A DNA stretch of 64,000 nucleotides from positions 21,985 to 85,984 of IMG/VR virus record IMGVR_UViG_3300012979_000028; one strand, written 5' to 3'. This stretch comes from a virus. Taxonomy: Duplodnaviria > Heunggongvirae > Uroviricota > Caudoviricetes. Below the pieces are notes generated by a model. The model searched no databases and was not told the DNA's origin. It saw nothing but the letters and a program-made list of their open reading frames with translations. Shown here in pieces: positions 637 to 31,192 of this stretch (positions are counted from its first letter, which is position 1; each line of letters opens with the position of its first letter). The position numbers were made by a program, and so were the translations under genes.

Positions 637-641
637 AGTTT

Positions 642-12718: not shown

Positions 12719-13792
12719 TTAATCTTCTTTTCCTTTATTATTCAGTGCATTATAACCAAGATAAGTAAGACCAGAGATACCAGCAGTTGCACCACCTAAG
12801 ACACCAGCTTTACCCCATCCACTTAATCCATCATACCAACCCTTTTCTTCTTGAGTTGGAGTAGTAGGAGTTTGAGTATTAGTATTAGTAGGGGTTTGAG
12901 GTTGTTGCTGAGTTTGTTGTGTATTAGTAGGGGTTTGAGGTTGTTGCTGAGTTTGTTGTGTATTAGTAGGAGGAGTATTAGTCTGCTGAGTCTGAGTTTG
13001 AGGTTGTTGCTGAGTTTGTTGTGTATTAGTAGGAGGAGTATTAGTCTGCTGAGTCTGAGTTTGAGGCTGTTGTTGTGTTTTTGCTGCCTCTTGTTGTGCT
13101 TTAGCCGCTTCCTGTTCTGCCTGAAGTTGTTTTCCTACCTTTTCTTGAGCAGCTCTTCTTTCATCCCAAGGTTTTTGTGCTTTCGCTGCCTCCTGTTGAG
13201 CTTTCGCCGCTTTAGCTGCTGCCTCTTCTTCTGCCTGAAGTTGTCTACCTACTTCTTCTTGAGCAGCTCTTCTCTTTGCTGTTACATTAACGTCTTTAAT
13301 TCCAGTACCAAGATCTTTATTACTATTACGTAGATTTTCGACTTCCTTAAGCTTATTCTCTAGTTGTTTATCTAAGGCAGGCTGTTCGTTTGTTAGTTTC
13401 TTGATTGTTTTTTCATTATTGTTATAGGCATTTACGTTAGCTATATCTCCTGAAGTTTCTGCCTTTGGTTTTAGGGTTGCTCGATTTGACTGTGCTACTT
13501 CTAGTCCTCTACTATTAGCACTTACAGCATCTCTCGCTACTCTAGCCTCTCTTTCTGCTGCAGCTATACTATTTCTGTTTCTAGCTATCTTAAACGAGTC
13601 CATCCAACCTTTTCCTGACGTACGTTGATTTCTGACACTTTGTATAAATCTTGCTCCGCTCGTAAAAGGGTTAACTGCATATTCTCGTTGTTCTTCTAGT
13701 TCTTGGTAATTGTTATATGCAGCGAATCTTTTTATTTTATACACTCCAGATCCGCAATATTTAATAGGAGAGTGTTGTCTGGTTAGTTTCAT
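12719..13792 (-). CDS. paralog-family protein with internal Q/T/P-rich and AQEEAAK tandem repeats and C-terminal glycine zipper
   Basis: 357 aa. N-terminus MKLTRQH. C-terminus GWGKAGVLGGATAGISGLTYLGY. Contains DNA-level tandem repeats. Confidence 0.6.
   Translation of the reverse strand: MKLTRQHSPIKYCGSGVYKIKRFAAYNNYQELEEQREYAVNPFTSGARFIQSVRNQRTSGKGWMDSFKIARNRNSIAAAEREARVARDAVSANSRGLEVAQSNRATLKPKAETSGDIANVNAYNNNEKTIKKLTNEQPALDKQLENKLKEVENLRNSNKDLGTGIKDVNVTAKRRAAQEEVGRQLQAEEEAAAKAAKAQQEAAKAQKPWDERRAAQEKVGKQLQAEQEAAKAQQEAAKTQQQPQTQTQQTNTPPTNTQQTQQQPQTQTQQTNTPPTNTQQTQQQPQTPTNTQQTQQQPQTPTNTNTQTPTTPTQEEKGWYDGLSGWGKAGVLGGATAGISGLTYLGYNALNNKGKED
12855..13080. repeat. intragenic tandem repeat (about 42-nt and 63-nt units, 2 copies each) encoding QQTQQQPQTQTQQTNTPPTNT
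   Basis: The unit ggttgttgctgagtttgttgtgtattagtagg... is repeated directly. Confidence 0.7.
13085..13275. repeat. second intragenic tandem repeat (about 90-nt unit x2) encoding RRAAQEEVGRQLQAEEEAAKA
   Basis: gctgcctcttgttgtgctttagccgcttcctgttctgcctgaagttg... is repeated. Confidence 0.55.
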
Positions 13793-14891: not shown

Positions 14892-15289
14892 TTAACCTAT
14901 CTTTTTGAATGTGACTGTGTACTTGCTTGTGTCTTTAATAATACAAGTACCCTTCTCTTGAATAAATCTATCAATCGGATTTGTTACCCACTTCGAAACT
15001 AGATCCTCATACTTAGTATCACATTCCACCTGAAGACTACGACAATTCATAATCTTCTCGTAAATCTTTCTCATACTATATGCACTACCAGAGAATTGAA
15101 TAGTATTATCATCTATTGCCTTCATATCCATAGCTCTCTCATAGGAATCGCCACATAGAAGGTCAAACAATAATCTAATCTTCGGACCAAAAGATGCACA
15201 ATAATCTGTATAATTCGTATCGTAAAATCTTCTAATCTCAAATATCTTCTCTACTGGTACATAATTAGTATTCGAATCCGCTTTTGTTC
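14892..15289 (-). CDS. family A DNA polymerase, terminal exon (about 131 aa; motif C region ...LQVECDTKYEDLV)
   Basis: The frame stays open upstream of the tracked start to 15289, next to the intron 3' end (...CTATGTG|AACAAAAGCGG). Contains the Q-V-x-D-E-like segment. Confidence 0.55.
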
Positions 15290-16499
15290 ACATAGGTTCA
15301 CTACGCCTATGCCGAATCTTATTTCAGCTATTAGTCTCCCAATAGGCCAGACTATATCTTCACTATAATAATATAATATAATATAATATAATATACTATA
15401 GTGTCTACCGTTTCGAGTATCAATCGTTTATACTCTACTCCCTTTCGGGATAGTCGTTGAATAAATTGCAAGAATTAAAGTAGTCAACTTTATTTCTATT
15501 ATTTACAGGATTTTCTTTAATAAAATCATCTACTTTAGTAGACTCTATTCTTAACTCTTTTACACCATTATTTACTAATGTCTTTTTAGGAGCAGAATAT
15601 TTTCCTCTCTTTTTTCTAGCAGGTTCTATTCTTCCTATAAATTTATAATCTTTATATTGATTAGACCCTATCAGTGATTTATCAACTAAAATAGATTTCT
15701 GTCCATTATTAATCCAAATTTTACCAAGATTAGGAGAAATTAAATTTCCTTTATTAAATCCCATTTCTCTATATTTTTCGTATTCATTAGGGTCTATCAT
15801 TTTAGATACTACCCCATTATTAACCCAGATAGTTCCTTTTAGGAAATTATGTTTACATGACCCTAAATTAAAACCGTTATCTAAAAATCTAGGAATATCT
15901 TCTTGATAAATGTAAATATCATATTTACCATCATTTACACAGATAGACCCTTCTTTCCATCCTGGTTTTCCATCAATAGAAACATTATATCCGAAAAGTA
16001 CTGAATCATATTCTTTAATCAATTCAGTTTCTCTTAGAAGTATTCTGTCGTAATTACTTGGAGTATCTTCATCCTCTATAAAGATGGAAAAATTATCTAT
16101 ATTAATATTCATGTTATGATACATTCCCCTACATTTAAATTCATTATTGCTTCTAAACAATATTACGTGCCCGTGAAATCCATCATAAAGTCGTCCAGGC
16201 AATCCATATTTAGCAGTCCCTATGTAATTTTTATTAGTAGATTTATCATGTATCCTATATAACACTGATTTATAATTTAATAATGGTTCTGGTAAATTTT
16301 CAATACCGTTAATTAAGTCTTTAAATTTAAATTCTCTCATTTTTTTTTATTTATTTTTATCTTTATTGCAATTTACTGCTGATTGACTCTATCTAAAGGA
16401 TTTTTACTATTGTGACTAAATCAATAGTACCTTTAGCTTAACAAGTTGTTCCAGCAATTAAGTAGATTTAAAGTGCACCATTTCTAGTTAATGCACTAC
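15290..16499 (-). mobile_element. group I intron with GIY-YIG homing endonuclease ORF
   Basis: The 3' core (P7: CGACUAUCCCGAAAGGGAG ... GAUAUAGUCUGG) sits at 15300-15440. The 5' core (AGTAAAAATCCTTTAGATAGAGTCAATCAGCAG) sits at 16375-16420. The ORF lies in between. Confidence 0.6.
15435..16340 (-). CDS. GIY-YIG homing endonuclease with NUMOD-like repeats
   Basis: SVLYRIHDKSTNKNYIGTA ... RETELIKEYDSVLFGYNV matches GIYxIxN..YVGSA/R..E..N of I-TevI-like enzymes. C-terminal WVNNGV/IWINNGQ/LVNNGV repeats. Confidence 0.75.
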   Translation of the reverse strand: MREFKFKDLINGIENLPEPLLNYKSVLYRIHDKSTNKNYIGTAKYGLPGRLYDGFHGHVILFRSNNEFKCRGMYHNMNINIDNFSIFIEDEDTPSNYDRILLRETELIKEYDSVLFGYNVSIDGKPGWKEGSICVNDGKYDIYIYQEDIPRFLDNGFNLGSCKHNFLKGTIWVNNGVVSKMIDPNEYEKYREMGFNKGNLISPNLGKIWINNGQKSILVDKSLIGSNQYKDYKFIGRIEPARKKRGKYSAPKKTLVNNGVKELRIESTKVDDFIKENPVNNRNKVDYFNSCNLFNDYPERE

Positions 16500-16559
16500 A
16501 ATAATTGGTTTAAGAGCTCTACTAGGGTTCCACTGTTGAGCAGAAACTCTAATATTATT
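16500..16559 (-). CDS. family A DNA polymerase, short exon (about 20 aa ...IIILEFLLNSGTLVELLNQLL)
   Basis: Lies between a B-type intron 3' end (...UUUUAUG|) and the next intron's 5' end. The frame links to the terminal exon. Boundaries are tentative. Confidence 0.35.
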
Positions 16560-16852
16560 CATAAAACCACTTGCCATTCAGTTTATCCAATATTTTCATA
16601 CTGGCCCGGACTATATCATCTTCCATTTATTTAATCTGGAAGGACTGCACTTCGAAAGATGGAATTTCACCACCAATCTACTCCTTCTCAGGATAGTCTC
16701 TACACCTTCTTATTTCTAAGCTTGGCACGGGATTAGCATAGATTATACACCCTTAGCTTTCCCCGTTAGCACTATTTCCATAGCACACCCTAGTTTTTCC
16801 AGGTTCACAGTCTTCTCATATAATATTACTACTATACGGCACAATTTTGTTT
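16560..16852 (-). mobile_element. ORF-less group I intron (B-type)
   Basis: Shares the core CATAAAYAAWTTGTGSCCNTATAGG...CACTTCG...GATAGTC...AAGCTTGGCACGG...GATATAGTC with the copies at 16874-17140 and 19759-20034. Confidence 0.55.
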
Positions 16853-16873
16853 ATGCTTGAAGTTCCTCCTTGT
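16853..16873 (-). CDS. family A DNA polymerase, 21-nt micro-exon (Q-G-G-T-S-S)
   Basis: ACAAGGAGGAACTTCAAGCAT lies between two B-type introns. Joined to the upstream exon it gives ...NLPIQGGTSS, matching the PolA N-x-P-[IM]-Q-G-[ST]-A-A motif. Confidence 0.4.
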
Positions 16874-17140
16874 CATTAATGTTAACTTTAAGTTCATTTT
16901 CCTTAAAGATCAGACTATATCATTATCTATTAATATATAGATAGATCGCACTTCGAAGAGAAGAATTTCACATCTCTTCTACTCCTTTTCAGGATAGTCG
17001 TTACACTTTCTTACTTATCCAGTAAGCTTAGCACGGGATTGGCATCTCAGCTTTCCCCGTTAGCACTATTTCCATAGCACACCCTTCTAGGTTCACGATC
17101 TTTTCGCTTATAAGTTACCCTATAAGGCCACAAATTATTT
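16874..17140 (-). mobile_element. ORF-less group I intron (B-type)
   Basis: 5' end AAATAATTTGTGGCCTTATAGGG right after exon ...CCCAT. P7 GACUAUCC/GAUAUAGUC. P9 hairpin CTTTAAGGAAAATGAACTTAAAG. Ends ...TTAATG. Confidence 0.6.
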
Positions 17141-17431
17141 ATGGGTAGATTCACTCCAAGTCTTTGAATTCTGGCTTCTTGATTCTTTTTCTCTCTTTGA
17201 TTTGTTGCAGCTTGATAATACTTCCACTCTTGAACTTGTAACTTATCACCTAACATAGTATTAATATATCCGTCGTGTGTTAGTGGATATTGCTGTTGAG
17301 AAGCCACATATTCACGAAGCTTAGGGAAACTCTTATAAAGTCCCTGAATAATATCCTCAGCCTCTTCTTCAGTTGCATTAAGACGTTCCGCTAGTGATTT
17401 TTTTCCAAGTCCATAAAGCCAATTTTTTTTT
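17141..17431 (-). CDS. family A DNA polymerase exon (motif B distal part: ...LYGLGKKSLAERLN...GYINTMLGDKLQVQEW...EARIQRLGVNLPI)
   Basis: Aligns with Klenow LIYGMSAFGLARQLN...GYVETLDGRRLYLPDI...AERAAINAPM. The tracked ORF 17047..17307 is read-through of this exon into the downstream intron. Confidence 0.6.
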
Positions 17432-18770
17432 CAAGGAGTATCGCTACTTCTCCCCGGTTCTCAGGTTTTATCCATGAACTCCTATGAGTTTGCCTCACAG
17501 ATTAGACTATATCTTCATCTTTATTTCTAAAGAGCTTACCGTTTCCACTATGCGAATTTTATAGTGTACTCCCTTTCGGGATAGTCGTTGAGGTTCAATC
17601 TGAAGATTGATTAGTCAGACCAATCTTTTTTATTTCATCTATAAGAGTTTGAGAGTCTGTAATTACATCATACGGATACTCAAATTCTTTTCCGAGATTA
17701 GAGTAGTATAAAACTTTAATACCATGTTCAGTACAAAGGTCTAACTTATTCTTATCTCTTAGTTTTACTTCTTTTAAATTATCCTCTCCTCCAAAGAACA
17801 CAACACTTTTAAAATGTTGAATTCCTTGACATTCAATAATAATATTATAGTCTGGTAAGTAAAAATCTACAAATTGTTTAGAATTATACACCAGCCAATC
17901 CCATGATTTTTGTTCTTCAGCCTTTATTGAGTTTTCATTTAAAATATTTCTTACGTAATCCTCTAAATGGGAACTTTTCACACATTGCGGGCATCTACAG
18001 CCTTGTAAATGGCTCTGAGCTTCCTGGAAAAACTCCCCATGTTCCGGACAGATTATACAAACTTCATCATGAAGATTATTAAATTTAACATTATCATAAT
18101 TATATCTAAAATTATGAATTTTATTTCCTCTTTCTTTGAAAGTTTCAATAGGCATTCTAAATCTTTTTGATAAATTAATTAATTTACAATTAGGACACCC
18201 TCTTCCAATTAGATGTTTAGAAGGACTTTGTTGAAATTCAGTTCCGCATTTATTGCATATTATTGTAACTTTTTCACTAGATCCTTTATAATCTACTTTT
18301 GAATAGGAGAAATTATTTCCATGTATTTTGGAAGCCTTTAATAGAAAATCATCCAGGGAAGTTCTAATTGCCTTCATCTTCTCCTTTCCGCAAATTGGGC
18401 AACCACATCCCCTTAAATGACTTCCAGCTTGCTGATAAAATTCATAATTGTGATTATTACATATAATAGGGATTTTATTTTTTGAACTAATACTATTATC
18501 TACTTTAGAATAATCATATTTATCTCCATGAATTTTTCTTGCCCTTTCAATAAATTTTTCTATAGTTAATTTTTCACTCATTGTACATTGTAATTAAATT
18601 TTATTTTAGATTAAACCTGCTGATTAACTCTATTCACTAGATTTTTACTATAAGCGACTAAATCTTATAGTACTAGTGACCTACGTAAATGTTAATTTAC
18701 TTCGAGTTTTTCCAGCATTTAGTAAGTAATAATTAAGTATCGCTACTTAACAGCGCACATTTTATTATAC
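17432..18770 (-). mobile_element. group I intron carrying a homing-endonuclease ORF
   Basis: 5' core at 18600-18770 (ACTTACTAAATGCTGGAAA...AGTAAAAATCTAGTGAATAGAGTTAATCAGCAGG). 3' core at 17432-17600 (CGACUAUCCCGAAAGGGAG, P8 hairpin CACUAU..AUAGUG, AAGAUAUAGUC). The ORF sits between them. Confidence 0.6.
17595..18581 (-). CDS. intron-encoded putative homing endonuclease: three zinc-ribbon repeats + Vsr/DUF559-like nuclease domain
   Basis: Triplicated module HG..Y.YSKV......K..IIC..HG.F.Q....HL.G.GCP.C. C-terminus FVDFYLPDYNIIIECQGIQHF resembles the DUF559/Vsr-type endonuclease core. Confidence 0.6.
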   Translation of the reverse strand: MSEKLTIEKFIERARKIHGDKYDYSKVDNSISSKNKIPIICNNHNYEFYQQAGSHLRGCGCPICGKEKMKAIRTSLDDFLLKASKIHGNNFSYSKVDYKGSSEKVTIICNKCGTEFQQSPSKHLIGRGCPNCKLINLSKRFRMPIETFKERGNKIHNFRYNYDNVKFNNLHDEVCIICPEHGEFFQEAQSHLQGCRCPQCVKSSHLEDYVRNILNENSIKAEEQKSWDWLVYNSKQFVDFYLPDYNIIIECQGIQHFKSVVFFGGEDNLKEVKLRDKNKLDLCTEHGIKVLYYSNLGKEFEYPYDVITDSQTLIDEIKKIGLTNQSSD

Positions 18771-18883
18771 GCCAAGGAAAATTGTTTTGAAGCGTTTACG
18801 CCACATCTTTTGCTGCTTTTTATCTAATTCATCCCAATGATCGCCTAAGTAAAGCTTCGCACTGTATATATAACATTTGTGTT
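18771..18883 (-). CDS. family A DNA polymerase exon (motif B proximal: ...HKCYIYSAKLYLGDHWDELDKKQQKMWRKRFKTIFLG)
   Basis: Aligns with Klenow DIHRATAAEVFG...SEQRRSAKAINFG. Junction phase is unresolved. Confidence 0.45.
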
Positions 18884-19228
18884 CAAGGAGTATCGTTACT
18901 TCTCCCCGGTTCTCAGGTTTTATCCATGAACTCCTGTAAGTTTTTTTACCCTACAGATCAGACTATATCTTCATCTCATTTTTACATGAGAGCTTACCGT
19001 TTCCACTATACGAATTTTATAGTGTACTCCCTTTCGGGATAGTCGTTGAGGTTCAATCTATAGAGATCAAACCTGCTGATTGACCCTATTAAAGAGATTT
19101 TTACTGAGTATTCCTCTAGTACTCTTTACCTACGTAAATTGTAAATAATTTACTTCAGGTGTTTCCAGCATTTAGTAAGTTAGTTTTTCTTAGAATCACT
19201 TCTAAGCGACACTAATATTTAATGTCAG
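18884..19228 (-). mobile_element. ORF-less group I intron (C+A type)
   Basis: Same 5' core (GACATTAAATATTAGTGTCGCTTAGAAGTGATTCTAAG...AATGCTGGAAAC) and 3' core (P7/P8/P9) as the intron at 19315-19650. Confidence 0.55.
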
Positions 19229-19314
19229 TTCCATTATTAAATTTTTCAATCAAATCTGGGTCTAAACTAGCAAACCCCGCGCTCTTTACTTCTGCACTAC
19301 TACATTTATGTTCA
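19229..19314 (-). CDS. family A DNA polymerase exon 3 or duplicated pseudo-exon (...EHKCSSAEVKSAGFASLDPDLIEKFNNGT)
   Basis: Its first ~30 nt are homologous to the start of exon 18771..18883 (AACAYAAATGT...AGTGCRGAAG). Flanked by two near-identical introns. Confidence 0.3.
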
Positions 19315-19650
19315 GGAAAGTTCACTACGCTCTCCCCGTTCTCTTATGAACTGCTATGAGTTCCTTCCCCATAGATCAGACTATATCTTCATCTCTGTTA
19401 CCAGAGAGCTTACCGTTTCGAGTATCAATCGTTTATACTCTACTCCCTTTCGGGATAGTCGTTGAGGTTCTGATTATAGATTAGTTAGTCAGACCAGTTT
19501 TAAATCAAAACCTGCTGATTGACCCTATGATAGAGATTTTTACTGAGGGTGACTAATTCCTCTAGTACTCTACCCTTAACAGGTGTTTCCAGCATTTAGT
19601 AAGTTAGTTTTTCTTAGAATCACTTCTAAGCGACACTAAAATTTAATGTC
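19315..19650 (-). mobile_element. ORF-less group I intron (C+A type)
   Basis: See 18884-19228. P7 CGACUAUCCCGAAAGGGAG / AAGAUAUAGUCUG. Confidence 0.55.
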
Positions 19651-19758
19651 GAAATAGGTCATCACATAATCACAACCACCATAGATTATATTACCATTTT
19701 CATCCCAGCTTGGTGGAGTAACAATACAATCTTTTAGGTCTGCATGCGAAATAATTGT
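19651..19758 (-). CDS. family A DNA polymerase exon 2 (TIISHADLKDCIVTPPSWDENGNIIYGGCDYVMTYF; motif A region)
   Basis: This is the only open frame across the segment between the B-type intron 3' end (...AAAATTG|) and the next intron. Aligns with Klenow DPNLQNIP...YVIVSADYSQIELR. Confidence 0.45.
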
Positions 19759-20034
19759 CAATTTTGTTAATCTTTAAGTTCATTTTCCTTAAAGTTCAGA
19801 CTATATCATCACCCTTTTTATATTGGGTGAGCTGCACTTCGGGATAAGGAATTTCACCTTAAACCTACTCTCTTTCGAGATAGTCGTTACACCTTCTTAT
19901 TTCTAAGCTTGGCACGGTATTGGGAATCTCACCTTTCACCGTTAGCTCTATTTACATTTACATAGAACACCCTAGATTTCTAGGTTCACAGCTTTCTGCA
20001 CTTATAAGTTTCCCTATAAGGCCACAAATTATTT
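19759..20034 (-). mobile_element. ORF-less group I intron (B-type)
   Basis: Starts AAATAATTTGTGGCCTTATAGGGAAAC immediately after exon-1 ...GGATTCCAT. P7 CGACUAUCUC/GAUAUAGUCUG. P9 hairpin CTTTAAGGAAAATGAACTTAAAG. Confidence 0.6.
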
Positions 20035-22566
20035 ATGGAATCCTGAGCTCCATCTTTTAGAACTCTTTGTATTTACTTCATAATGTACAAAACACTTTTC
20101 TACAGCCCCTTGTTCTCCTGGATCTGCTTCTCTTAGTGGAATATGGTCTTCACCTTCGATCACCCACTTATTATTAGCCTTGAACATTCCGTCGATATAA
20201 GTAGAGAGGACTTTAGCATATTTTTTATAGAGAAGATAATTAATAACCAGCTTTCTCATAAATTTAAAATCCTCTTGTAGGTCAGACTCATCGAACGGTT
20301 TGCCATAATCTAGGTATTCTCCATTAACATAACCAAAGAATTGAGCTTGAGCGATAAATCCATTAAAGTTAGACCAGATTTCTTTAACTTGATCTGCATC
20401 TTGAGGAACCACAGTCACTTTTTTAGTACCATCTGCTTTAGTTTTAGTAGAGGTTGAAGTTTTAATAGTTCCTAGGTATTCTCTTGATAGGTTATAAACT
20501 TTTTCTGGATAGTCTCCCAAGTCCTTTCCTTCAGAGTTATAATAGTTTTCTGTAGAAGTTAGGAAATGTTCGAATGCTTTTTCTATACTATCTATTCCTA
20601 GGTTTTGATAGAATTTCTCTGCATCTTTGAGTTGTTGAGTAGAGTCTAGGATAGCAGCAAGGAAAGCAGTTTGATATTTATACAGTTCGGCGAATTCATG
20701 GCATATCAGATCATTTTCCTCTGGGCTAGTACACATAAATAGGTTCTTACTAATATATTCAGAGTATTCACTTAGAGTTAGCCAAGATCCGAATGCATAG
20801 ATTTTATCAGGAATGTTATTAATATCTTTAAGTTGGTTACTAGATATTTTCTTTAGTTCTTTATAAGCTTTTTCATAGTACATATATTTTTCTAGTTCTA
20901 TTAGCTTATTATCCACCTTAATAGAATCTAGTCCAATAAGTGTTTTAATTTTTTCAGCTATAATTCCTAAGATTTTCTTTTTCTTAACAATTCCATCATC
21001 TATCTTAGTTTTCATTTTAACTTCGGTCATAGAACTTCTTACAATATCCATGAAGTCCCCAGCAAAAGTGTCACCATAGCTCATTCTAAGACTACCTTCA
21101 TTTACTCCCGTATCATAAGCATCCATTGTGTCTATGTTAGAAGATAGGATATACTTAGTTATCTCTAGTGGATCAGCATTAAAGAACTTACCGTCACGAA
21201 TTAATTTTTGAGCAACCGGATGGAATTTCTTTATATTAGCCATTTTACTAGAGTGTGTATTCATTTTAATCTTACATCTAGCGGTAGCACAATAAGTTAT
21301 TCCCCAAGCCATCATTTTCAGGGATTCGTTATGATATTGAAGTCTAAAGTTTTCATCAATATACAAACCGCTCGAGTGAAGAAGAGAGCCTAGTCTGGAA
21401 TTATCAAGGAAAGTTTCAAATGCATCAGTACTATATTCATTTTTCTTAGATTCATATAGCATTAGTGTATAGAAAGCATCCAAGTTACAGTAATAGCCTA
21501 AGATATCACTAGGAATACACATAAACGGATTTCCCCAATATTCTAGGATAAGACTTTCGAATTCTTTCACGTAGTTAGGATATCTTGTACTTAGTTCTGT
21601 CCACTCCGGCGTATTCTTGAAATTGCTCTGATCTACCTTAAGAATTTTTTGTCTATCTTTCTTGGTAGTTCCGGTAGTAGTAAATAGCATCTCATCAATC
21701 AAGTCAGAGATTCTATCAAATTCAGTATCCCATGCATTGACTCCTAATATATTTTGAGCTGTCCATTTGAGGGAATATTTCTTCAAGTGATTTCCATCCA
21801 AGACATTAATAGTAGAAGCGTCACAGAGATTATAAAGAGTTACACCAAGCATTCTATGACTAACTTGGAACTCGTACTGCATATTATAGACCCATATCTT
21901 TCTTTGTCTTTTCTCCAAGAATTCACCAAGTCTCTTCAGTAGTTCTAGGTATTCTCCGGGGGTATTATTATGTCTACAATCTGTAAAGCTAATAAATCCA
22001 CCAAACTGAGAATTACATAAAGATGCTCCAGATATTTCAAACCATTTATCCAAGGGCATACCAGAAGCTTCATAGTCAAATCCAAAGTTAGTATCTTCAG
22101 GGAGGCTATCCATATAATTTATCATGTTAATAGACTCCTGAACGTTATGAAGTATTTTGTGTTTAAAGTTGAAATTAACCTGTTGTGTAAATTCTGGAGA
22201 TAAGAAGTAGTTTATATCCTCTTCTTTCGGTTTATCATCTCCAATACATTTCACAAAAGCGCCACCCTCTATGGATAGTCTTTTTAATTTACAACAGTCT
22301 GAGAAGTTTTCATTACGTATACCAAAATGAAAATACTGTCTCAAACATGAAAAAGCACCAGGGTCAGCTAACAATACACCATCCCCAGGCCCTAATGTTT
22401 TTACTAATTTAATTTCTTCGTCAGTGAGTACGGGTATTTCTGATTTTCTACTTGATGTTCTAGCGATTAATATACTTTCACTAGTAGAAATACCATCAAT
22501 GAAAAAATAGTTGTTATTGAAACTACCGTTTTCATCTGAACTTAGAATAATTAATCTTTTGTTCAT
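20035..22566 (-). CDS. family A DNA polymerase, exon 1 (3'-5' exonuclease domain + N-terminal part of polymerase domain)
   Basis: Exo I FGFDYEASGM. Exo III YCNLDAFYTLML. C-terminal part ...KVLSTYIDGM...FVHYEVNTKSSKRWSSG aligns with Klenow KSTYTDKL...HTSYHQAVTATGRLSS. The tracked ORF terminates 3 codons into the intron. Confidence 0.8.
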
Positions 22567-22686
22567 AATTTAAATGGTTTTTATAATATTAATATACACC
22601 TATAAGGAACCTCCTGCTCTTGAATCTACTTTACAAAAAAAAAAAGAAAGAGAAGGACTTTTTTACATCCCTCTCTATAATTAATT

Positions 22687-22986
22687 TTACAAGTAGTCGT
22701 TTGAGAATCTAGTTAGGTCTTCACTCATAGGAATAGAATCTGGTTCAAAGTCCTCATCTATCACCCATTCTTTGGCGATAATATAAGTTCTTTTATCATC
22801 CCCTAGTACTTTTAATACGGGCATAACTGGAGATACGTCTAAGATATGTCCATGTTCAGTGAATTCGAGTAGATCCTTATCATACCACTTAAAATTAATT
22901 CTCATGCCAACTTTAAGACTATCCATATTGTATTTTAAGTTTATGGTTGGTTTAGTTATTACTTTCTTTTTCTTCAGGTTTGTCAT
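22687..22986 (-). CDS. hypothetical protein
   Basis: 99-aa ORF. Confidence 0.45.
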   Translation of the reverse strand: MTNLKKKKVITKPTINLKYNMDSLKVGMRINFKWYDKDLLEFTEHGHILDVSPVMPVLKVLGDDKRTYIIAKEWVIDEDFEPDSIPMSEDLTRFSNDYL

Positions 22987-23671
22987 CAGTTCTTAAGTCG
23001 ATTAGTTTAAATTTTCCAAGTCCGTCCTCAAAATCATATTCACTGCTCTTAGAATCAATCAACAAGTTCCAAGTATCTTCATCATTAACTAGTCTCAAGC
23101 TATAAGTAGTACCTGCCTTATGATGAATATTAGCTTTGTGAATTCTAATCCAGAGTATATTACCATCATTTAACTCAACTGCCATACCAAAGTTACAGCA
23201 ATATTTTAGAGTCTTATCTTGTTCCTTAGATTCCTGTAATGCCTTAATAGATTCTATACTAATTGTTGGTCTAGTTTCCATCAGGTTTTTTACTCTACTT
23301 AGGAACAATTCTCTCTCAGTCATTTCGCAGTGTAGAGAGTATGGAATAAATCTAATCATGTTTCTTGTTTCCTCAGGGTTACCAAAACTAAAACCTTCAG
23401 GAATAATATCAATAACTTTAGTTTCCTCACTACCTTCCAATCTATAGTAGCATTTGTAAGTCATAGTTAGTGGATTAAAGTTACAGATATCTTCAATAAT
23501 AGCGGCTTTATTAGTTACATTCCAGTTATTATTATCGTCTTTTGTAAAGTTTAAACACATAACTGGCTGACCTATATATTCAAGTATAACAGATCCAGGT
23601 AATACCCATTTGTAGCTAGAATGATTAAAGCCGTAGCGATCAATTAAAATTTGTTCTCTTGTTTTTGCCAT
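22952..23671 (-). CDS. hypothetical protein
   Basis: 239-aa ORF. Confidence 0.5.
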   Translation of the reverse strand: MAKTREQILIDRYGFNHSSYKWVLPGSVILEYIGQPVMCLNFTKDDNNNWNVTNKAAIIEDICNFNPLTMTYKCYYRLEGSEETKVIDIIPEGFSFGNPEETRNMIRFIPYSLHCEMTERELFLSRVKNLMETRPTISIESIKALQESKEQDKTLKYCCNFGMAVELNDGNILWIRIHKANIHHKAGTTYSLRLVNDEDTWNLLIDSKSSEYDFEDGLGKFKLIDLRTDDKPEEKESNN

Positions 23672-23675
23672 TGTT

Positions 23676-24290
23676 TTAAATATTTATATCATTTTCTACG
23701 AAGTCTGTCTTAAATTCTCCTGATTCAGTAAAGTATTTCATGTTACTAAGCCAGTCTTTATAATTCATTACCCTAGTTCTAACATAAGCTTTTCCTTTAC
23801 TTTTCCTATAATTGCTTAACTTCAATACCCCTTTTGTATCTTTTATTAGCTTAACGTTAGTAAAAGAACTTGCCATTACACTAAGCATTTTGTAGTAGGG
23901 GTCTTCATTATCAACAGTTTCAGGAGCTCTATTAACAATACCTTTTATAATAACATCCTCTAGAGCTTGTTGTTTTATCGGTATGATTATAGGTCTACCA
24001 TACTCATCAGTTATACACATAGAAATTTTGGCCTCCTTAATGGGATCAACGCCGTAGTTATCTCTATATTGTTTTATTTTCTCTAGAGCATCTTTATTAT
24101 CTTCTGCCCAGTCGTTAATATTAATCTTAGTTCCGAAAAATATACGAGAAGGGTAGTCAAAGTCATCATCCGGTTTTTGAAAATTTTGGATCTCAAGTAC
24201 TAGGTTTGGTGTTTTTCCTAGTTTGTTCCAGAATGTTTTGAGTAATTCTTCAAAAGTTTCTGTATCTACTATGTTCCATTTATAAATCAT
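23676..24290 (-). CDS. hypothetical protein
   Basis: 204-aa ORF. Confidence 0.5.
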   Translation of the reverse strand: MIYKWNIVDTETFEELLKTFWNKLGKTPNLVLEIQNFQKPDDDFDYPSRIFFGTKININDWAEDNKDALEKIKQYRDNYGVDPIKEAKISMCITDEYGRPIIIPIKQQALEDVIIKGIVNRAPETVDNEDPYYKMLSVMASSFTNVKLIKDTKGVLKLSNYRKSKGKAYVRTRVMNYKDWLSNMKYFTESGEFKTDFVENDINI

Positions 24291-24449
24291 TTAAAATTAA
24301 TTATTATTTAGTTTGCTTTTCTAATCATGGCCTGTATAGTATATGGGAAAACTAATACAGACTATTCTACACTTATAAGAATATTCTTCCTCTAGATCGG
24401 CAAATTTATAACATTTCCCTCATATATAGAGAATTAAATAATATTAACT

Positions 24450-24842
24450 ATGAAAAATGAATTTATTATAGACACTCTGAATAGTATAGAGGGTTATAAA
24501 ACTAGATTAAAAGAGATTCACTGGTCTTCTCCTAATATGTGTATTCATGAATTATCTGATGAATTTTCTACAATACTAGGGACTTATGAAGATCAGATTG
24601 CGGAGCTAGCTATTTCTTTATGGGGTGAGATTATGCCTGGAGAGTTAGAGCCTATTTCATCAGGGGACATGGATTTTCTTAACTTACTACAGACAATCTT
24701 AGGAAAAGCAATAGAAGTGAAGAGAAATTGTGAATCAGGGTTAATGTGGACTGGTATAGAAAGCGTTACTGATTCATTTATAGCAGATGTTCAGACCTAT
24801 ATTTTCAAAGTAAGAATGGAATATAAGTCTTTGAAGGATTAA
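24450..24842 (+). CDS. hypothetical protein (plus-strand island)
   Basis: 130-aa ORF. Confidence 0.5.
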   Translation: MKNEFIIDTLNSIEGYKTRLKEIHWSSPNMCIHELSDEFSTILGTYEDQIAELAISLWGEIMPGELEPISSGDMDFLNLLQTILGKAIEVKRNCESGLMWTGIESVTDSFIADVQTYIFKVRMEYKSLKD

Positions 24843-24889
24843 AAAAAGTAGAGAAGGATTTTTATGTCCCTCTCTTTCTTTTTTCTCTC

Positions 24890-25798
24890 TTAAATTACTC
24901 CCTCTGTTATGAGTTTTGTAAATTGCTCCAAGTTTATAAGACAACCACAAGCCCCTGGATGTCCTCCACCATTTTCATAGCTCTTAGATACATATTCACC
25001 ACAATTAAACTCTGGCAATCGATCTGGCTCTTTGTACATTCCTAAGCTAAAGGTTGTTGCTGTTTTTCTCTGAACTACAACATAAATATCATAGTCAGGA
25101 ATTACACTCTCAAACATACTAGAACCAAATTGTGGACTTAACAGAGCGATTCCATTATACCTACCTGCTACTGTAACTGGAAATCCGTAAGTTTTAACCC
25201 AAGTTCTCCAAGTAGCTCTATTATATTCTAGGATGCTTTTGCCTGTATTAATTAAGTATCCTATTATTTTTTGATTAGATATTAAGTCGTTCAAGTTATT
25301 ATAGAGTTTATTAAATTTCAACTCAAACTTAGTCTTAATAGCATACTCGATAGGTAGGGTCTCTTCTTCCCAAGGAAACTTACTTTTATTCCATACATCA
25401 TAAGCTCCAATATACTGAATGATCTTAGGACAAACAGTACCTGGATAAAAGAACTGCCAACATAACTCACAAGCAGCAGTACCATTAACTCTTATTCCTT
25501 GGGCTCCATCGTAACCGTGATTGATAGAATTATTTATAGCAGTACAGTGGTGATCTATCCAAACTAATTTTCCTGAGTCCGCTAGTTCTTTCATTACTTC
25601 AGGTGGGAAAGAGATATCAACCATTACTACCTTATCGAAACTTTGTAATAGGTAATTAGTCTCTGGTATATTATCTCCGTAATTCCAACCTAAGAACTGT
25701 GGCTCAAGTCCTTCAACTTCTGTAAAATATTTTCTTGCTATACTACCTGAAAATAATCCATCGAAATCTACCCTATGATAAATGATTAGTATGTTCAT
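24890..25798 (-). CDS. DHH/DHHA1-family phosphoesterase (NrnA/RecJ-like)
   Basis: N-terminal HRVDFDGLFSG (motif I). WIDHHCT (DHH motif). GGGHPGACG (DHHA1 GGGH motif). Confidence 0.7.
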   Translation of the reverse strand: MNILIIYHRVDFDGLFSGSIARKYFTEVEGLEPQFLGWNYGDNIPETNYLLQSFDKVVMVDISFPPEVMKELADSGKLVWIDHHCTAINNSINHGYDGAQGIRVNGTAACELCWQFFYPGTVCPKIIQYIGAYDVWNKSKFPWEEETLPIEYAIKTKFELKFNKLYNNLNDLISNQKIIGYLINTGKSILEYNRATWRTWVKTYGFPVTVAGRYNGIALLSPQFGSSMFESVIPDYDIYVVVQRKTATTFSLGMYKEPDRLPEFNCGEYVSKSYENGGGHPGACGCLINLEQFTKLITEGVI

Positions 25799-26241
25799 AG
25801 TCCTGTTGCATTAAATTCTAGTCCAGTAATAGATCTTACAATATTCTGAAGTTGGTGTACACTCTTGAAATTACCAGACCCACAGATAGAGTAGCTGTTA
25901 TCTTTAATTTCTACTTTCCAGATTCCATTACTTACAGACACAATCGTCAAAGTATAGAATACATCAGACTTTGTAGGAGAAAATAGCTGAACAATCTTAT
26001 CAACGACAGGCAATTCAGTTACAGAAGTTTTTATCTCTCTATCTGAAAAACCTAGAGCTACAAATATTCTGTTATCGAAGAAGATTAGTGGCTCAAGTTC
26101 ACTATAAGCTCTCTCACTAGTTTCGTCTCCTAGTAAAGTTTTTAGAGTTACAGTGCTTTCCTTGATTTCCACAACCTTCATTCTTTTCAGATCTTTCGGA
26201 GAATTTACTATATCTCCAATCATCAATTCACTTTTATCCAT
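25795..26241 (-). CDS. hypothetical protein
   Basis: 148 aa. 4-nt overlap with the upstream gene. Confidence 0.5.
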   Translation of the reverse strand: MDKSELMIGDIVNSPKDLKRMKVVEIKESTVTLKTLLGDETSERAYSELEPLIFFDNRIFVALGFSDREIKTSVTELPVVDKIVQLFSPTKSDVFYTLTIVSVSNGIWKVEIKDNSYSICGSGNFKSVHQLQNIVRSITGLEFNATGL

Positions 26242-26295
26242 ATTGTATTAATTTATTCATTCGTTTATAAGAGAAAGAGTTGATGTAATCCTTCT

Positions 26296-27180
26296 TTAGT
26301 ACATTTTATCTTGTAACTGAACTGCATCAACATAATCAATTCCACATTTTTCAGCAGAGAGTCTATCAATATTACTCTGTCCTGCAAAACCTGAATTAAC
26401 TCCGATATACACAGCCTCACTCTTACATATTGGAAACTCTGGATTACTAAGGATGAAGTTAATGTGATCTGCTTTTGTAACTCCATCACTCATTACTATA
26501 GCTTGACATGCCAGATGAGAAAAGCCTAGGAATGAACTAAGAGCCATACAGAAGTAACTAAAAGTAGAATTCCACAAGCCTCTATCTCCTCCATAATTTT
26601 TACAAAGGATATAGATTTTCTCTGGGTTATAAGCTCCAATCTTAGTCCATAGTTGTAGTTTAGGTTTAAGATCATAAATACCTCGTGGAACTAATCCTAG
26701 ACTTCCGTTACTGTGTATTGTTTCTGCCACTATATCCTGAAAGTCTGTAATAATAACCTTCTTAGTTCTATCAATCTCGACATCACTACTGTTATTGTTA
26801 TTATTACTATTGTTCCAAGGCATAGTTGTTGTTCCAGTACTTCCCCACATAGGTCTACTTTGCTGTTGTGGTTGAGTCCATGCATTACTACCAGAAGAAC
26901 TACTATTATTCCAACTATTATTTGCTGCAGCTCCCCAAGTTGGTGTTGAAGATTGTGTTATAAAAGGTGTAGTTACCATGCTTCTATTATTAAAATTGTT
27001 TATAATTCTTTTACTATCATCGTCTTCGGTTTCTTCATCCTCTTTTCCTTCGTCGATGTCACTTAAGCTATCTTCATCATCATCGTAATCGTCGTCATCA
27101 TCATCACTGTCATACAATTCACTCGAGTAATCAGGCTTAAGTAAATCTGTTATCTCTTCTTTTTTCTCATGTTTATCCAT
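26296..27180 (-). CDS. hypothetical protein with extremely acidic N-terminal region
   Basis: DSDDDDDDYDDDEDSLSDIDEGKEDEETEDDD, then an S/N/T-rich linker and a C-terminal globular domain. Confidence 0.55.
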   Translation of the reverse strand: MDKHEKKEEITDLLKPDYSSELYDSDDDDDDYDDDEDSLSDIDEGKEDEETEDDDSKRIINNFNNRSMVTTPFITQSSTPTWGAAANNSWNNSSSSGSNAWTQPQQQSRPMWGSTGTTTMPWNNSNNNNNSSDVEIDRTKKVIITDFQDIVAETIHSNGSLGLVPRGIYDLKPKLQLWTKIGAYNPEKIYILCKNYGGDRGLWNSTFSYFCMALSSFLGFSHLACQAIVMSDGVTKADHINFILSNPEFPICKSEAVYIGVNSGFAGQSNIDRLSAEKCGIDYVDAVQLQDKMY

Positions 27181-27201
27181 AAAGTTAATTTTTTAATGAG
27201 T

Positions 27202-28620
27202 TTACCAATTATAAGGTACTAGTGGGATTTCAATTGAACCTGTTTTGCACCTCCACCTAATATTATACTTCTTATTCTCTTGAACTGCTAATCCACAACA
27301 CTGAAATTTATTGATACAGGATAGAGCTAGCCTATAATCTATTAATTTATTAGATAGCTCTGTAAATCTCTCAATAACTTCCGGTCCTGTAGGGTTTTCT
27401 TCCCACTCATTTCTTTTTACAGCAGGAAGAATGTCTGGAGTAATTGTCTCAATGCAGAAAGATTGAACTGTTTCTTTTTTCTCTCTTTCCTTTCCCTTTT
27501 TCTTTTCAGGCTGTTTGGATACTTCACTTCTCTTCTCACAGATTCCATCCACTATACCCAAACTTTCTAAGAACTTCTCCTTTTCAGTTTTCTCATAATC
27601 TTTGCTTTCTAGGTATAGATATTTTTTCCATCTCAGGTCTCTCAATTCTCCTAAGATATTGCCAACTTCACCTAGAATATTAGTTGTATCGAATCTCTTC
27701 CTGCTGTATAATGGGAGTGATTTAAGACTTAGCATGTATTCACCCTCAGTCAACTCTTCCATCTCAATTCCTGTACATTTTAATTTATCATAGACACTAG
27801 GTGAAACTCTGACTGTTAGATAATCTTTCCAGTAATATCCGTCCTTAATTATACACAGATGTCTTTTTCGTACGGTTTCAAATTTACCTTCCGGAATATC
27901 TACTTTATTTTTAGGGATTTCTATTTCAGTAGGGATTAGATAGGCTATACTAATATTACTTCTAATCTTATTTCCTAGCTTTCCGAATCTCACTAATTTT
28001 ACCCAATCACTTTCTTTCAGTTTATTAGATCGGTGTGAAACAATAGTGATATTTCTTACTTCATCTATGTTATAATCACTTCCAAGATTAATAAATACAT
28101 CATCCTCACTTTCCAGCAGAATATTAATTACATCTAAGACATCATACTTTCCACTTTTAAATGCTAATGATTTGTCCTGATAGCTTGCAATGTCTGGTTT
28201 TAGTGCCTTGGCATTTAAGTTAGAAATCCTTTTGTTGTAGAATTGTTTATTAAGATCCTCATTACGTAGACATCTTACCAAAACTTCCATTACCTGAATT
28301 AACTCATACATTTTCTGCCATTCTTTAACTCCTGACACATCTAGTTTGATTAGGTTGATTATTGAAGAAATGACTCTCCTTTCATATTCACTCTTCTCAC
28401 TAATTTTCAAACATATCTCATCACCCTCCTCTAGCGAATATATTTCATCAACACTGTTCAGTTCTCTTTTTATAACCTCACTATCATTTTTATAAAAACT
28501 TACAATCTTGGTAGGAGATAATCCAAAGATATAAAATTTATCACTGTTTACAATTGTATCGACCTCATAAATACTTATCTCCCTGATTCTTAACTTAGAG
28601 TATTCAATATCTATTAACAT
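27202..28620 (-). CDS. hypothetical protein
   Basis: 472-aa ORF. Confidence 0.55.
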   Translation of the reverse strand: MLIDIEYSKLRIREISIYEVDTIVNSDKFYIFGLSPTKIVSFYKNDSEVIKRELNSVDEIYSLEEGDEICLKISEKSEYERRVISSIINLIKLDVSGVKEWQKMYELIQVMEVLVRCLRNEDLNKQFYNKRISNLNAKALKPDIASYQDKSLAFKSGKYDVLDVINILLESEDDVFINLGSDYNIDEVRNITIVSHRSNKLKESDWVKLVRFGKLGNKIRSNISIAYLIPTEIEIPKNKVDIPEGKFETVRKRHLCIIKDGYYWKDYLTVRVSPSVYDKLKCTGIEMEELTEGEYMLSLKSLPLYSRKRFDTTNILGEVGNILGELRDLRWKKYLYLESKDYEKTEKEKFLESLGIVDGICEKRSEVSKQPEKKKGKEREKKETVQSFCIETITPDILPAVKRNEWEENPTGPEVIERFTELSNKLIDYRLALSCINKFQCCGLAVQENKKYNIRWRCKTGSIEIPLVPYNW

Positions 28621-28695
28621 TTGTAAATTAATTTAGTTTAGTTATTAACAATTATAAGGAAAAAAGGCTTTATAAATACACTTGAAATCTTATAA

Positions 28696-29466
28696 GTGTA
28701 CAAATGTAAATTAACTACTATGGATAATTGTAAAAGAGATCTAGTTCTTTGTGGAGATATTCATGGAGACTTAAGAAAACTGGTATGGACTGCAATCAGT
28801 AAGTATAAGATGGAGAATACTGACATCTTAGTTTTAGGTGACTTTGGTGTTGGGTTTGATAAGAAGATATTTGCTGATTATGAAAACGTTGGTCCAAAAT
28901 TAGAGGCTGCTAACATTACTATCTATACTATTCGAGGAAATCATGATGACCCGGGATGGTTTGATGGTACACATGATTTTGATAGGATTAAGTTTTTAAA
29001 AGATTATGAAATTATTAACCTAGGAGATAATCTTGATATTCTTCCTATAGGTGGTGCTAATTCTATAGATATTACGTATAGGTTGGAAGAAAATAAAAAA
29101 CTGGAGAAAAAGAAAAAGAAGTGTTGGTGGGAAGGAGAGGATATTGAAAGACGTGACATAAAAGATATTCCTAAACGGGTGGATCTTATTGTAAGTCATG
29201 AATGTCCTTTATTATTTGAACCTATCCCCACTAGAATAAGTGACTGTCCTTTATGGCAATATGATAAGATACTAAGTTCAAGAGAGTACCTAAAAGATAT
29301 TGCTCTGAATGTAAATACTAATTATTGGTTCTACGGTCACTATCATAAATCTATTTCAGGAGACTTTAGAGATATTAGGTGGAGATGTTTAGATATTATG
29401 GAGTTATATCTAGTTCCAGAAAAGAAGATTACAAACCCTCAGGGAAAACTTTTAGAAACGGAATAA
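28696..29466 (+). CDS. calcineurin-like metallophosphatase (Ser/Thr phosphatase-type)
   Basis: GDIHGD, GDFGVGFD and RGNHD motifs. Confidence 0.75.
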   Translation: MYKCKLTTMDNCKRDLVLCGDIHGDLRKLVWTAISKYKMENTDILVLGDFGVGFDKKIFADYENVGPKLEAANITIYTIRGNHDDPGWFDGTHDFDRIKFLKDYEIINLGDNLDILPIGGANSIDITYRLEENKKLEKKKKKCWWEGEDIERRDIKDIPKRVDLIVSHECPLLFEPIPTRISDCPLWQYDKILSSREYLKDIALNVNTNYWFYGHYHKSISGDFRDIRWRCLDIMELYLVPEKKITNPQGKLLETE

Positions 29467-29548
29467 ATCCTTATATATGAGTTAATAGAAATATATAACG
29501 ACGATTTTACAACAATAACTATATATATGTTGTACGTTGTTTGTGTTT

Positions 29549-29590
29549 CTCCCGGGGTACTATCCTCGGGTTTTTTATTTTTTTTTCTTT
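29549..29590 (+). terminator. rho-independent terminator for the plus-strand phosphatase gene
   Basis: ctcccggggtactatcctcggg hairpin + T-run. Confidence 0.65.
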
Positions 29591-29591
29591 T

Positions 29592-29616
29592 AATACAGAG
29601 TCCGGTTGAAAAAAAA
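29592..29616. promoter_or_regulatory. conserved box AATACAGAGTCCGGTTG + A-run (copy 1 of 3)
   Basis: Near-identical copies at 41988-42014 and inverted at 63966-63990. Confidence 0.4.
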
Positions 29617-29806
29617 GAAAAGCTAACTAAGTTTCCCAACTCGATTAGCCTTTGAAAGCAGTATCCATCTACTGTGGCGAATTATATAGGTTCAATTACC
29701 TAACACGTCTTACCCAGCAGGACTTGCTTTCTGTCTTATTTGACATGCTTGTACGGAAAATCAGAAACCGTACAATATCCTCATATATAAGACTTTTAGG
29801 GGATAA

Positions 29807-29840
29807 GAAAAAAAAATAAAGCCCAGTTAATCCAGGCTTT
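29807..29840 (-). terminator. rho-independent terminator (minus strand)
   Basis: AAAGCCTGGATTAACTGGGCTTT hairpin followed by T9 on the minus strand. Confidence 0.55.
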
Positions 29841-29846
29841 TCTCGG

Positions 29847-29947
29847 TTATAAGATAAATCTCTGTATTGCGTCTACAATGATCCAACCGAAGATCCCTAT
29901 TGCAGACAAGATTGTTATTATACAAATTATTGTAAATAAATCTTTCA
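29847..29947 (-). CDS. 33-aa membrane peptide
   Basis: ATG at 29945-29947. Translation MKDLFTIICIITILSAIGIFGWIIVDAIQRFIL. Promoter-like motif 20 nt upstream, terminator immediately downstream. Preferred over the tracked 71-aa ORF in another frame. Confidence 0.4.
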
Positions 29948-30908: not shown

Positions 30909-30936
30909 AAAAAAAAAGTTCCAGGGTTTCCCCTGG
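30909..30936 (-). terminator. rho-independent terminator (minus strand)
   Basis: CCAGGGGAAACCCTGG hairpin + T9 on the minus strand, downstream of 30949..31155. Confidence 0.6.
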
Positions 30937-30948
30937 ATACAATTTACA

Positions 30949-31155
30949 CTAGTCTCTCTTCACGGCTGCCATTACAGCGAGGTTTGCAGTTAATGCTACC
31001 AATGCTGATGCTATGCCGAAATTTCCCGTCCAAAACTGGATAGGAGATGTGACCATCTCCCAAAAAGAGTGGTCCTGAAGAAATGTTACGCACTGCGCGA
31101 TAAATAATATTGAACTTATCGCCATCATTACTAATATAAATACTATTGTTTTCAT
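30949..31155 (-). CDS. small membrane protein
   Basis: 68 aa with two hydrophobic helices. SD-like taaggaa before the ATG. Conserved 33-nt leader upstream. Confidence 0.55.
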   Translation of the reverse strand: MKTIVFILVMMAISSILFIAQCVTFLQDHSFWEMVTSPIQFWTGNFGIASALVALTANLAVMAAVKRD

Positions 31156-31159
31156 TTCC

Positions 31160-31192
31160 TTATACGATTAACCTATACATCGCGAGGTTTTT
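31160..31192 (-). promoter_or_regulatory. conserved 33-nt 5' leader element (copy 2)
   Basis: ttatacgattaacctatacatcgcgaggttttt, identical to 6286-6318. Confidence 0.5.

Follow-up and report, generated by a model that had tools for sequence, protein, structure and literature searches.

The 64,000-nt stretch analyzed here (hereafter the window; positions 21,985 to 85,984 of the IMG/VR record IMGVR_UViG_3300012979_000028, a virus of the Caudoviricetes) carries on its minus strand a family-A DNA polymerase gene that is split into eight exons (3606 nt) by seven introns (4069 nt), and a GyrB-like type IIA topoisomerase gene that contains one further intron. The polymerase introns are designated I1 to I7 and the topoisomerase intron T, and the two sequence families to which they belong are designated B and CA. 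In the following list, the P1 helix of each intron is given as exon target/intron guide, and ORF stands for open reading frame.

14892..22566, minus strand: whole split family-A DNA polymerase gene
20035..22566, minus strand: exon 1, codons 1-844, end ...SSGFH
20034-19759, minus strand: I1, B family, 276 nt, no ORF, phase 0 after codon 844, P1 CCAU/GUGG
19646..19758, minus strand: exon 2, 113 nt, ends at the motif A aspartate (...YFD-I)
19645-19303, minus strand: I2, CA family, 343 nt, no ORF, inside codon 882, P1 GACAU/GUGUC
19222..19302, minus strand: exon 3, 81 nt, SSAEVKSAGFASLDPDLIEKFNNGTD-I
19221-18874, minus strand: I3, CA family, 348 nt, no ORF, inside codon 909, P1 GACAU/GUGUC
18769..18873, minus strand: exon 4, 105 nt, ends in motif B (...RKRFKTIFLGV)
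18768-17420, minus strand: I4, CA family, 1349 nt, inside codon 944 (motif B), putative endonuclease ORF in the P6 loop, P1 GCGU/GCGC
17595..18581, minus strand: homing-endonuclease-like ORF in I4, 328 aa, repeated treble-clef zinc fingers and a C-terminal nuclease-like domain
17141..17419, minus strand: exon 5, 279 nt, end ...RLGVNLP-I
17140-16874, minus strand: I5, B family, 267 nt, no ORF, inside codon 1037, P1 CCAU/GUGG
16853..16873, minus strand: exon 6, a micro-exon of 21 nt, (I)QGGTSS(I), between two tandem B-type introns
16852-16579, minus strand: I6, B family, 274 nt, no ORF, inside codon 1044, P1 GCAU/GUGC
16491..16578, minus strand: exon 7, 88 nt, ends at the His of the presumed motif C (...PIIVVH)
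16490-15279, minus strand: I7, divergent CA, 1212 nt, phase 0, carries an ORF, P1 GUGCAU/GUGCAC
15435..16340, minus strand: ORF in I7, 301 aa, probably a GIY-YIG homing endonuclease
14892..15278, minus strand: exon 8, 387 nt including the stop, begins DSNTNY...
1349-1029, minus strand: T, the topoisomerase intron, divergent CA, 321 nt, no ORF, P1 AGGAU/GUCCU

Joining of the eight exons gave a 3606-nt ORF of 1201 aa plus stop, free of internal stops, whose product matched Pfam DNA_pol_A (E = 6e-28). When this spliced product was searched against 5.8 billion proteins, many intron-less full-length homologues were found, such as P0001 (1198 aa, 73% identity, end-to-end alignment), and all seven junctions (SSGFH|TIISH, YFDI|SSAEVK, GTDI|YIYSAK, FLGV|LYGLG, NLPI|QGGTSS, GGTSSI|MASGF and IIVVH|DSNTNY) were collinear with the intron-less homologues, gap-free and residue for residue. 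The boundaries were placed by requiring a U at position -1 that pairs with a G in the P1 helix, a terminal intron G and a restored frame. As read from the sequence, the U at -1 of every one of the eight introns lies in a U.G pair with the guide sequence in P1, and every intron ends in G. The micro-exon 6 is required to rebuild the conserved NLPIQGGTSSIMASGF of all intron-less homologues, and the 3' end of I6 is fixed at 16579 by the 'SSIMASGF' of those homologues. Placing the 3' ends of the CA introns at the conserved ...TGAA, the end of I6 at 16570, or the 5' site of I4 after GGCGTAT gave stops or missing or extra residues, and these positions were rejected. The first-pass annotation, made from the letters of the window, had both ends of I1, I5 and T and the 5' end of I6 exactly right; its remaining boundaries were off by 2-19 nt, mostly because the 3' tail of the CA introns (...TGAACAyAAATG) was counted as exon.

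The exons that flank T translate into one continuous protein as well, with a continuous toprim motif (...ATDADED|GYAIRN...) that T splits. This GyrB-like subunit (ATPase plus toprim) occupies positions 1-3200 of the window on the minus strand, with one intron, and its gene extends past the window start. Whereas gene callers fragment the essential polymerase (845 aa, 86 aa, 92 aa and so on), recognition of the introns restores the complete 1201-aa polymerase and the complete topoisomerase subunit.

All seven polymerase introns lie within codons 844-1073, that is, within 690 nt of coding sequence, and each of them appears, from alignment, to be at or beside a catalytic motif or a conserved segment of the polymerase domain. 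In an alignment with Taq polymerase, I2 falls one residue past the motif A Asp, I3 at the DIY/DIH position, I4 within motif B, and I5 and I6 in the PIQG (PIQGG) loop. The Taq alignment ends before the I7 site, which lies between His1073 and Asp1074 of ...IIVVH|DSNTNY...; the VVHDS of the window polymerase we take to be motif C, by its likeness to the QVHDE of bacterial Pol I. The I1 site is in the conserved segment SSGFH|TIISH. The five inner introns, I2-I6, share phase 2, each interrupting an AUx or GUx codon behind its second base, and the outer introns I1 and I7 are in phase 0, after CAU (His).

A gene of this kind could be an artefact of assembly, with intron repeats stitched together wrongly, or a decayed polymerase pseudogene. 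Assemblers struggle with such repeats, and the contigs of five relatives (L048, L052, L053, L054 and L055) do stop within the intron cluster. However, removal of the seven segments at canonical splice sites leaves the 1201-aa frame uninterrupted and all polymerase motifs intact, the sequences of the short exons are unique, and in the relative L049 four of the introns occur, independently, in the same order. Moreover, the independently assembled contig L056 is 100% identical to positions 19610-31189 of the window (11.6 kb) and enters the cluster, stopping 36 nt into I2, inside a block common to I3. We consider an artefact or a pseudogene scarcely credible. Because intron repeats fragment metagenome assemblies, the intron counts in public contigs are probably underestimates.

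The Rfam covariance model of group I introns (RF00028, gathering score 50 bits) matched all eight introns, always on the minus strand, in agreement with the initial proposal of group I introns at these seven polymerase intervals and in the topoisomerase gene. The scores of I2 (64.4), I3 (59.9), I6 (54.4) and I5 (53.4) were above the gathering score, and those of I1 (49.4, E = 1e-10), T (40.2 at 1077-1354, E = 9e-7), I7 (37.2) and I4 (33.1) were below it, with E values from 1e-10 to 1e-5. The low scores of I4 and I7 are due to the ORFs that split these introns: their RF00028 matches fall on the 3' half, and a hidden Markov model (HMM) of the CA family matched both halves of each. I1 matched the HMM of the B family with E = 4e-76. 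T, which had been placed exactly, at 1029-1349, and called C+A-type from the outset, was found (E = 8e-24) by an HMM built only from the polymerase introns of relatives, with no window sequence, and it therefore belongs to the CA family, as a divergent member. No further B- or CA-family copies were detected by HMM in the 64-kb window or in the ~8-kb flanks of the relatives' polymerase genes. Each intron would be a ribozyme that excises itself from the pre-mRNA by means of the P1 U.G 5' splice site and the terminal G, restoring the ORF.

Sequence comparison resolves two families in the window, B (I1, I5 and I6) and CA (I2, I3, I4 and the divergent I7 and T), rather than the three structural sub-families initially distinguished; both have P7.1/P7.2 cores, and a third family, B2, was found in relatives only. 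In global alignments that count all columns, members of a family were 67-77% identical, compared with a mean of 48% and a maximum of 53% for shuffled sequences, so the copies are indeed far more alike than expected by chance; pairs of one B and one CA intron were at the chance level of ~50%. A pairwise matrix with cheap gaps inflated unrelated pairs to ~75% and was dropped in favor of the all-column measure, the shuffles and MAFFT alignments. By MAFFT, identities in the B family were 79% for I1-I5, 72% for I1-I6 and 74% for I5-I6, and in the CA family 83% for I2-I3, 81% for I3-I4 (core only) and 70% for I2-I4, with I7 at 60-67% to I2-I4 and T at 52-62% to the others. The 85-95% identity first reported within families is accordingly not reached by whole introns (70-83%, or 52-68% for I7 and T). 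Only local blocks attain 93-99%, namely 71 nt at the 5' ends of I2/I3 (99%), 40 nt of I5/I6 (98%), 38 nt at the 5' ends of I1/I5 (97%), 67 nt over P7.1-P7.2 of I2/I7 (93%) and 68 nt of the 3' tails of I3/I4 (93%), and therefore the introns are mosaics of shared modules.

The consensus foldings by RNAalifold were supported by covariation, 37 of 57 predicted pairs of the B family (13 copies) and 25 of 47 of the CA family (10 copies) having changes on both sides. The helices supported in this way include P3, P4, P6, P7.1, P7.2, P8 and P9, and P7 (ACGACUA/UAGUC) is conserved. In both families two covarying hairpins, P7.1 and P7.2, directly follow ACGACUA (alignment columns 191-222 and 226-250 in A3, 225-236 and 240-266 in A4), and P7.1/P7.2 after P7 is the architecture of subgroup IA that is typical of phages (PMC3984707). 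Both families therefore look like subgroup IA (T4 td, Twort type), an assignment that holds at the subgroup level only. Their peripheries differ: in B, P2 is followed by an additional hairpin region and P5 is short, and in CA there are a long P5 extension, an extra 3' hairpin and the TGAACAyAAATG tail.

The polymerase homologues come from 340-402 kb viral contigs of the human gut, plus contigs of rumen and other animal metagenomes. Judged from these homologues, the window polymerase would be that of a jumbo phage whose relatives are gut and rumen 'Jug-like' phages of 340-402 kb. The occupancy of the sites was scored in 52 non-identical relatives covering the region, counting insertions as visible to tblastn: 21 relatives had none, 4 had one, 13 had two, 13 had three and 1 had four; in L041, five introns were seen by HMM. 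The seven introns of the window are the maximum when compared with the 52 relatives sampled. The search of related genomes for empty sites, suggested at the outset, showed that each of the seven window sites lacks its intron in some relatives, among them intron-less homologues with 73-83% aa identity; the I1 site is empty in L001 and L049. Even L001, a relative of 98% aa identity, has an intron set different from that of the window. These data agree with the initial view that the introns are mobile and have multiplied across the sites of one gene from a few related families.

The relatives also use sites that are vacant in the window (846, 887 and 941; sites are numbered by codon). The B2 family, absent from the window, occupies site 887 and its vicinity. 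In L001 (13941-14217) a micro-exon of 15 nt (TAGTAGTGCTGAGGT, coding SSAEV) is followed by a B2 intron of 262 nt at codon ~887, which Rfam missed at E <= 0.01, and further B2 copies are present in L025, L041, L048 and L054.

When the window introns were aligned (MAFFT) with the copies found at the same sites in relatives, identities were 95% for I1/L048, 91% for I2/L001 (core; the L001 copy carries an endonuclease gene), 97% for I3/L049, 86% for I4/L049 (an ORF-less copy), 96% for I5/L049 and 94% for I6/L051; the ORF-less copies at the I7 site were 93% (L001) and 89% (L049) identical. Every window intron is thus nearer to its same-site copy elsewhere (86-97%) than to its paralogues in the window, none of which exceeds 83%. 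These values bear on the claim of the first-pass annotation that the introns reflect recent intragenomic spread, that is, a recent burst of transposition, by homing or reverse splicing, inside this one genome. Such a burst would account for several introns of one family lying within a few hundred bases of one another, for paralogue pairs with an identical P1 target, and for the local paralogue blocks of 93-99% (I2/I3, I5/I6 and I1/I5). However, the whole-intron paralogues are only 70-83% identical as against the 86-97% of the same-site copies, which largely refutes this reading. Furthermore, the distance between paralogues is the same within and between genomes, being 79% within and 77-80% between for s844/s1037 and 83% and 81-85% for s882/s909 (for example, I1 and I5 of the window are 79% identical, and so are the s844 copy of L048 and the s1037 copy of L049), and therefore there has been neither a genome-specific burst nor concerted evolution. 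L049, the N-terminal polymerase part of which is only 65-75% identical at the nt level, already holds four of the same site lineages. We regard a burst in this genome as most unlikely.

The exons between the introns are themselves mosaic. The nt identity of window and L049 exons is 65-75% over codons 1-760 but rises to 92-98% in the segment with the four shared introns (codons 921-1201), whereas the exons of window and L001 are 97-100% identical except at codons 841-920 (77-87%), exactly where the intron sets differ. Across genomes, the introns are far more conserved than the N-terminal exon, with 94-97% compared with 65-75% nt; in L051, the exons are ~69% identical to those of the window overall (about 69-82%) and the shared I6 is 94% identical. 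Exon identity that steps exactly around shared and unshared introns, together with polymorphic sites, is the pattern by which mobile (homing) introns are recognized.

Vertical inheritance, with an ancestor occupied at all sites and precise deletions since then, would explain why identical sites are occupied repeatedly in relatives with polymerases of only 55-75% identity, and precise loss of introns through spliced RNA or intron-less donors is known in principle. Nevertheless, it does not fit introns that are more similar than the gene that holds them (94-97% versus 65-75% nt in L049, and 94% versus about 69-82% in L051), nor the sharp steps of exon identity at the intron-bearing segment, nor a relative such as L001 in which 97-100% identity elsewhere drops to 77-87% only around the different intron set. 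In addition, 21 of the 52 relatives are intron-free. Differential loss from a fully occupied ancestor is in our judgment very unlikely.

Two of the introns carry genes that could drive their movement. The ORF of I4 matched Pfam DUF4379 (E = 4e-11), phrog_559 (E = 5e-62) and phrog_9084, a 'homing endonuclease' (E = 8e-21), and it has homologues with 45-54% aa identity in the CA intron at site 882 of L001 (12824-13759) and at the I7 site of L051 (5873-6835). Endonucleases of this family (zinc fingers, DUF723/DUF4379) are thus found in CA introns at three polymerase sites in different phages, which suggests that endonuclease genes move between introns or retarget. No informative solved-structure relative of the I4 endonuclease was found by sequence, and a link to a Vsr-like EDxHD fold, which had been considered, was not established. 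The ORF of I7 gave no Pfam match at E <= 0.01. It matched weakly phrog_5123, a 'homing endonuclease with GIY-YIG motif' (E = 0.002), and I-TevI (1LN0, E = 0.18), with VLY..YIG..R..E..GYN aligned in the latter case, and this ORF, for which the GIY-YIG label had already been used, is a candidate GIY-YIG homing endonuclease, with an orthologue in L040 at 57% identity. The last ~45 nt of the I7 ORF (15435-15480, ...FNDYPERE*) overlap the ribozyme core at P6'/P7/P7.1.

The similarity of same-site copies, the equal distances between paralogues and the mosaic of the exons together imply recent movement of introns between genomes with flanking exon, the split between paralogues being older. We consider it probable that the locus has a history of two layers, an older transposition to sites that match the guide sequence and a recent site-specific spread between co-infecting phages. 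In the older layer, members of each family would have transposed to new polymerase sites and to the topoisomerase gene, either by reverse splicing or after off-target endonuclease cuts, since the data fit either route, and only those at sites whose final 4-5 exon bases match the internal guide sequence of the intron would have survived. In the recent and continuing layer, site-specific lineages would move between co-infecting related phages by homing or recombination, driven by the I4 and I7 endonucleases or by trans-acting ones, and dragging along the flanking exon and neighboring ORF-less introns. The window genome would then be the one that has so far accumulated the largest set of introns.

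Several points weigh against this two-layer history. Among the seven polymerase introns only I4 and I7 carry an endonuclease gene; recent movement of the other five would have to rely on enzymes acting in trans, on co-conversion with a neighbor or on general recombination, and our inference is the same for T, which is likewise ORF-less. The exon mosaic could also arise by ordinary, endonuclease-free homologous recombination between co-infecting phages. The order of events is based on identity percentages among ~20 sequences, with no dated phylogeny, and the structural constraint on ribozymes makes such identities hard to convert into time. Three of the seven polymerase introns (I1 by 0.6 bits, I4 and I7), as well as T, are below the Rfam threshold, and the splicing of the eight introns is predicted from their sequence.

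The choice of sites is related to the guide sequence. The closest paralogue pairs have a common P1 target, CCAU in I1/I5 (s844 and s1037) and GACAU in I2/I3 (s882 and s909). At site 941 (KTI|FLGV), 11 nt upstream of the I4 site, three relatives have B-type introns (L025:8162-8454, L039:8177-8461 and L041:8147-8441); the target is ACUAU with the guide GUAG in L025 and ACCAU with the guide GUGG in L039 and L041, so that a synonymous codon (ACT/ACC) covaries with the intron. This compensatory change between exon and intron argues that the P1 pairing is under selection. The s941 copy of L025 and the s846 copies both combine ACUAU with GUAG, though they are not each other's closest lineages. Shared targets are what reverse splicing predicts, but in an essential gene any insertion mechanism predicts them equally, since insertions that cannot splice are lost. 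The pattern of families and sites may record transposition of group I introns within a protein-coding gene directed by the guide sequence, that is, by reverse splicing, an idea that we hold only tentatively and consider rather doubtful. On this idea, in both paralogue pairs independently, an intron with an unchanged guide would have moved to a new site offering exactly the same pairing bases, and the s941 (L025) and s846 copies of the B type give a hint of the same kind. Transposition by this RNA route has long been postulated and, to our knowledge, has never been demonstrated. If it did operate here, this phage clade would be the best available system in which to catch it, and it would help to explain how ORF-less introns colonize essential genes.

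Elsewhere in the window, a 357-aa ORF (12719-13792, minus strand) carries a long tail of low complexity, built of near-perfect QQTQQQPQTQTQQTNTPPTNT repeats, together with a coiled repeat rich in AQ/E. Across positions 1-64000 the GC skew is almost everywhere negative, and no tRNA genes were detected by ARAGORN.

Whatever the route of the older transposition, the locus offers a compact natural data set. Sites number seven (all occupied) in the window and at least ten across the relatives, the introns fall into three families, and two or more families of endonucleases appear to swap between introns. The clear co-conversion footprints in the exons make the locus suited to studies of the persistence and spread of ORF-less introns among phage populations. 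In phage PhiPA3, an intron-encoded endonuclease reportedly takes part in the competition between co-infecting phages, and the locus could help to test intron endonucleases in this role.

A megablast search of the locus against 50,697 phage records gave no match. By tblastn, the cultured phages yielded only distant polymerases of at most 27% identity, and a sensitive blastn search of I3 and I5 against the introns of cultured phages recovered only a core of 100-150 nt at about 70-77% identity. There appears, by these searches, to be no close sequence relative of the locus among the 50,697 deposited phage genomes.

Staphylococcus phage Twort has three introns in orf142. Two introns interrupt its nrdE gene, and the DNA polymerase genes of the Bacillus phages SPO1 and Bastille have single introns (PMC3984707). 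The likeness to the window lies in phage introns of subgroup IA that occupy conserved motifs of replication genes, some with homing endonucleases, and are polymorphic among relatives. There, however, a gene holds one to three introns, whereas the window polymerase holds seven in 690 nt, with a micro-exon of 21 nt. The crAss-like phages of the Zeta and Delta groups, gut phages of Bacteroidota, have up to 14 introns per genome, detected via endonuclease domains, and one of their major capsid protein genes is in five fragments (PMC7886860). They resemble the window in having core genes split by several group I introns, and they differ from it in phage order and in the gene affected, and in that the window has no sign of an alternative genetic code.

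The Jug (jumbo gut) phages have genomes of 360-402 kb with a mean of 18.5 group I introns and many homing endonuclease genes; according to the text of the paper that describes them, their DNA polymerase genes are 'frequently split' by endonuclease sequences, terL is split into two or three fragments, nrdD is fragmented, and metatranscriptomes support the splicing of 37 of 76 predicted introns (PMC12880540). Homologues of the window polymerase were found on 340-402 kb viral contigs from the human gut. In contrast, the closest relatives of the window are on contigs named as rumen or other animal samples, and the window polymerase is, in this domain, only about 73-75% aa identical to the human-gut contigs found here, which are intron-less in the region. 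Seven introns in one gene, the structure of families and sites and the exon mosaic are not described in the text of that paper (PMC12880540).

In rDNA, too, related group I introns have reached new sites, a spread that has been attributed to reverse splicing (work cited in PMC3984707). As in the window, related introns are found there at different sites of one gene, and the sites have 4-6 guide-pairing bases in common. The target in the window differs in being a protein-coding phage gene. In both cases the evidence is circumstantial, and insertion at the DNA level followed by selection for splicing fits equally well. With respect to all of these systems, the locus is an extreme member of a known phenomenon, not a new kind of element, and it leaves the knowledge of group I introns itself unchanged; what it adds is the density of seven introns with a 21-nt micro-exon, a probable history of two layers, and exons that bear the footprints of co-conversion.

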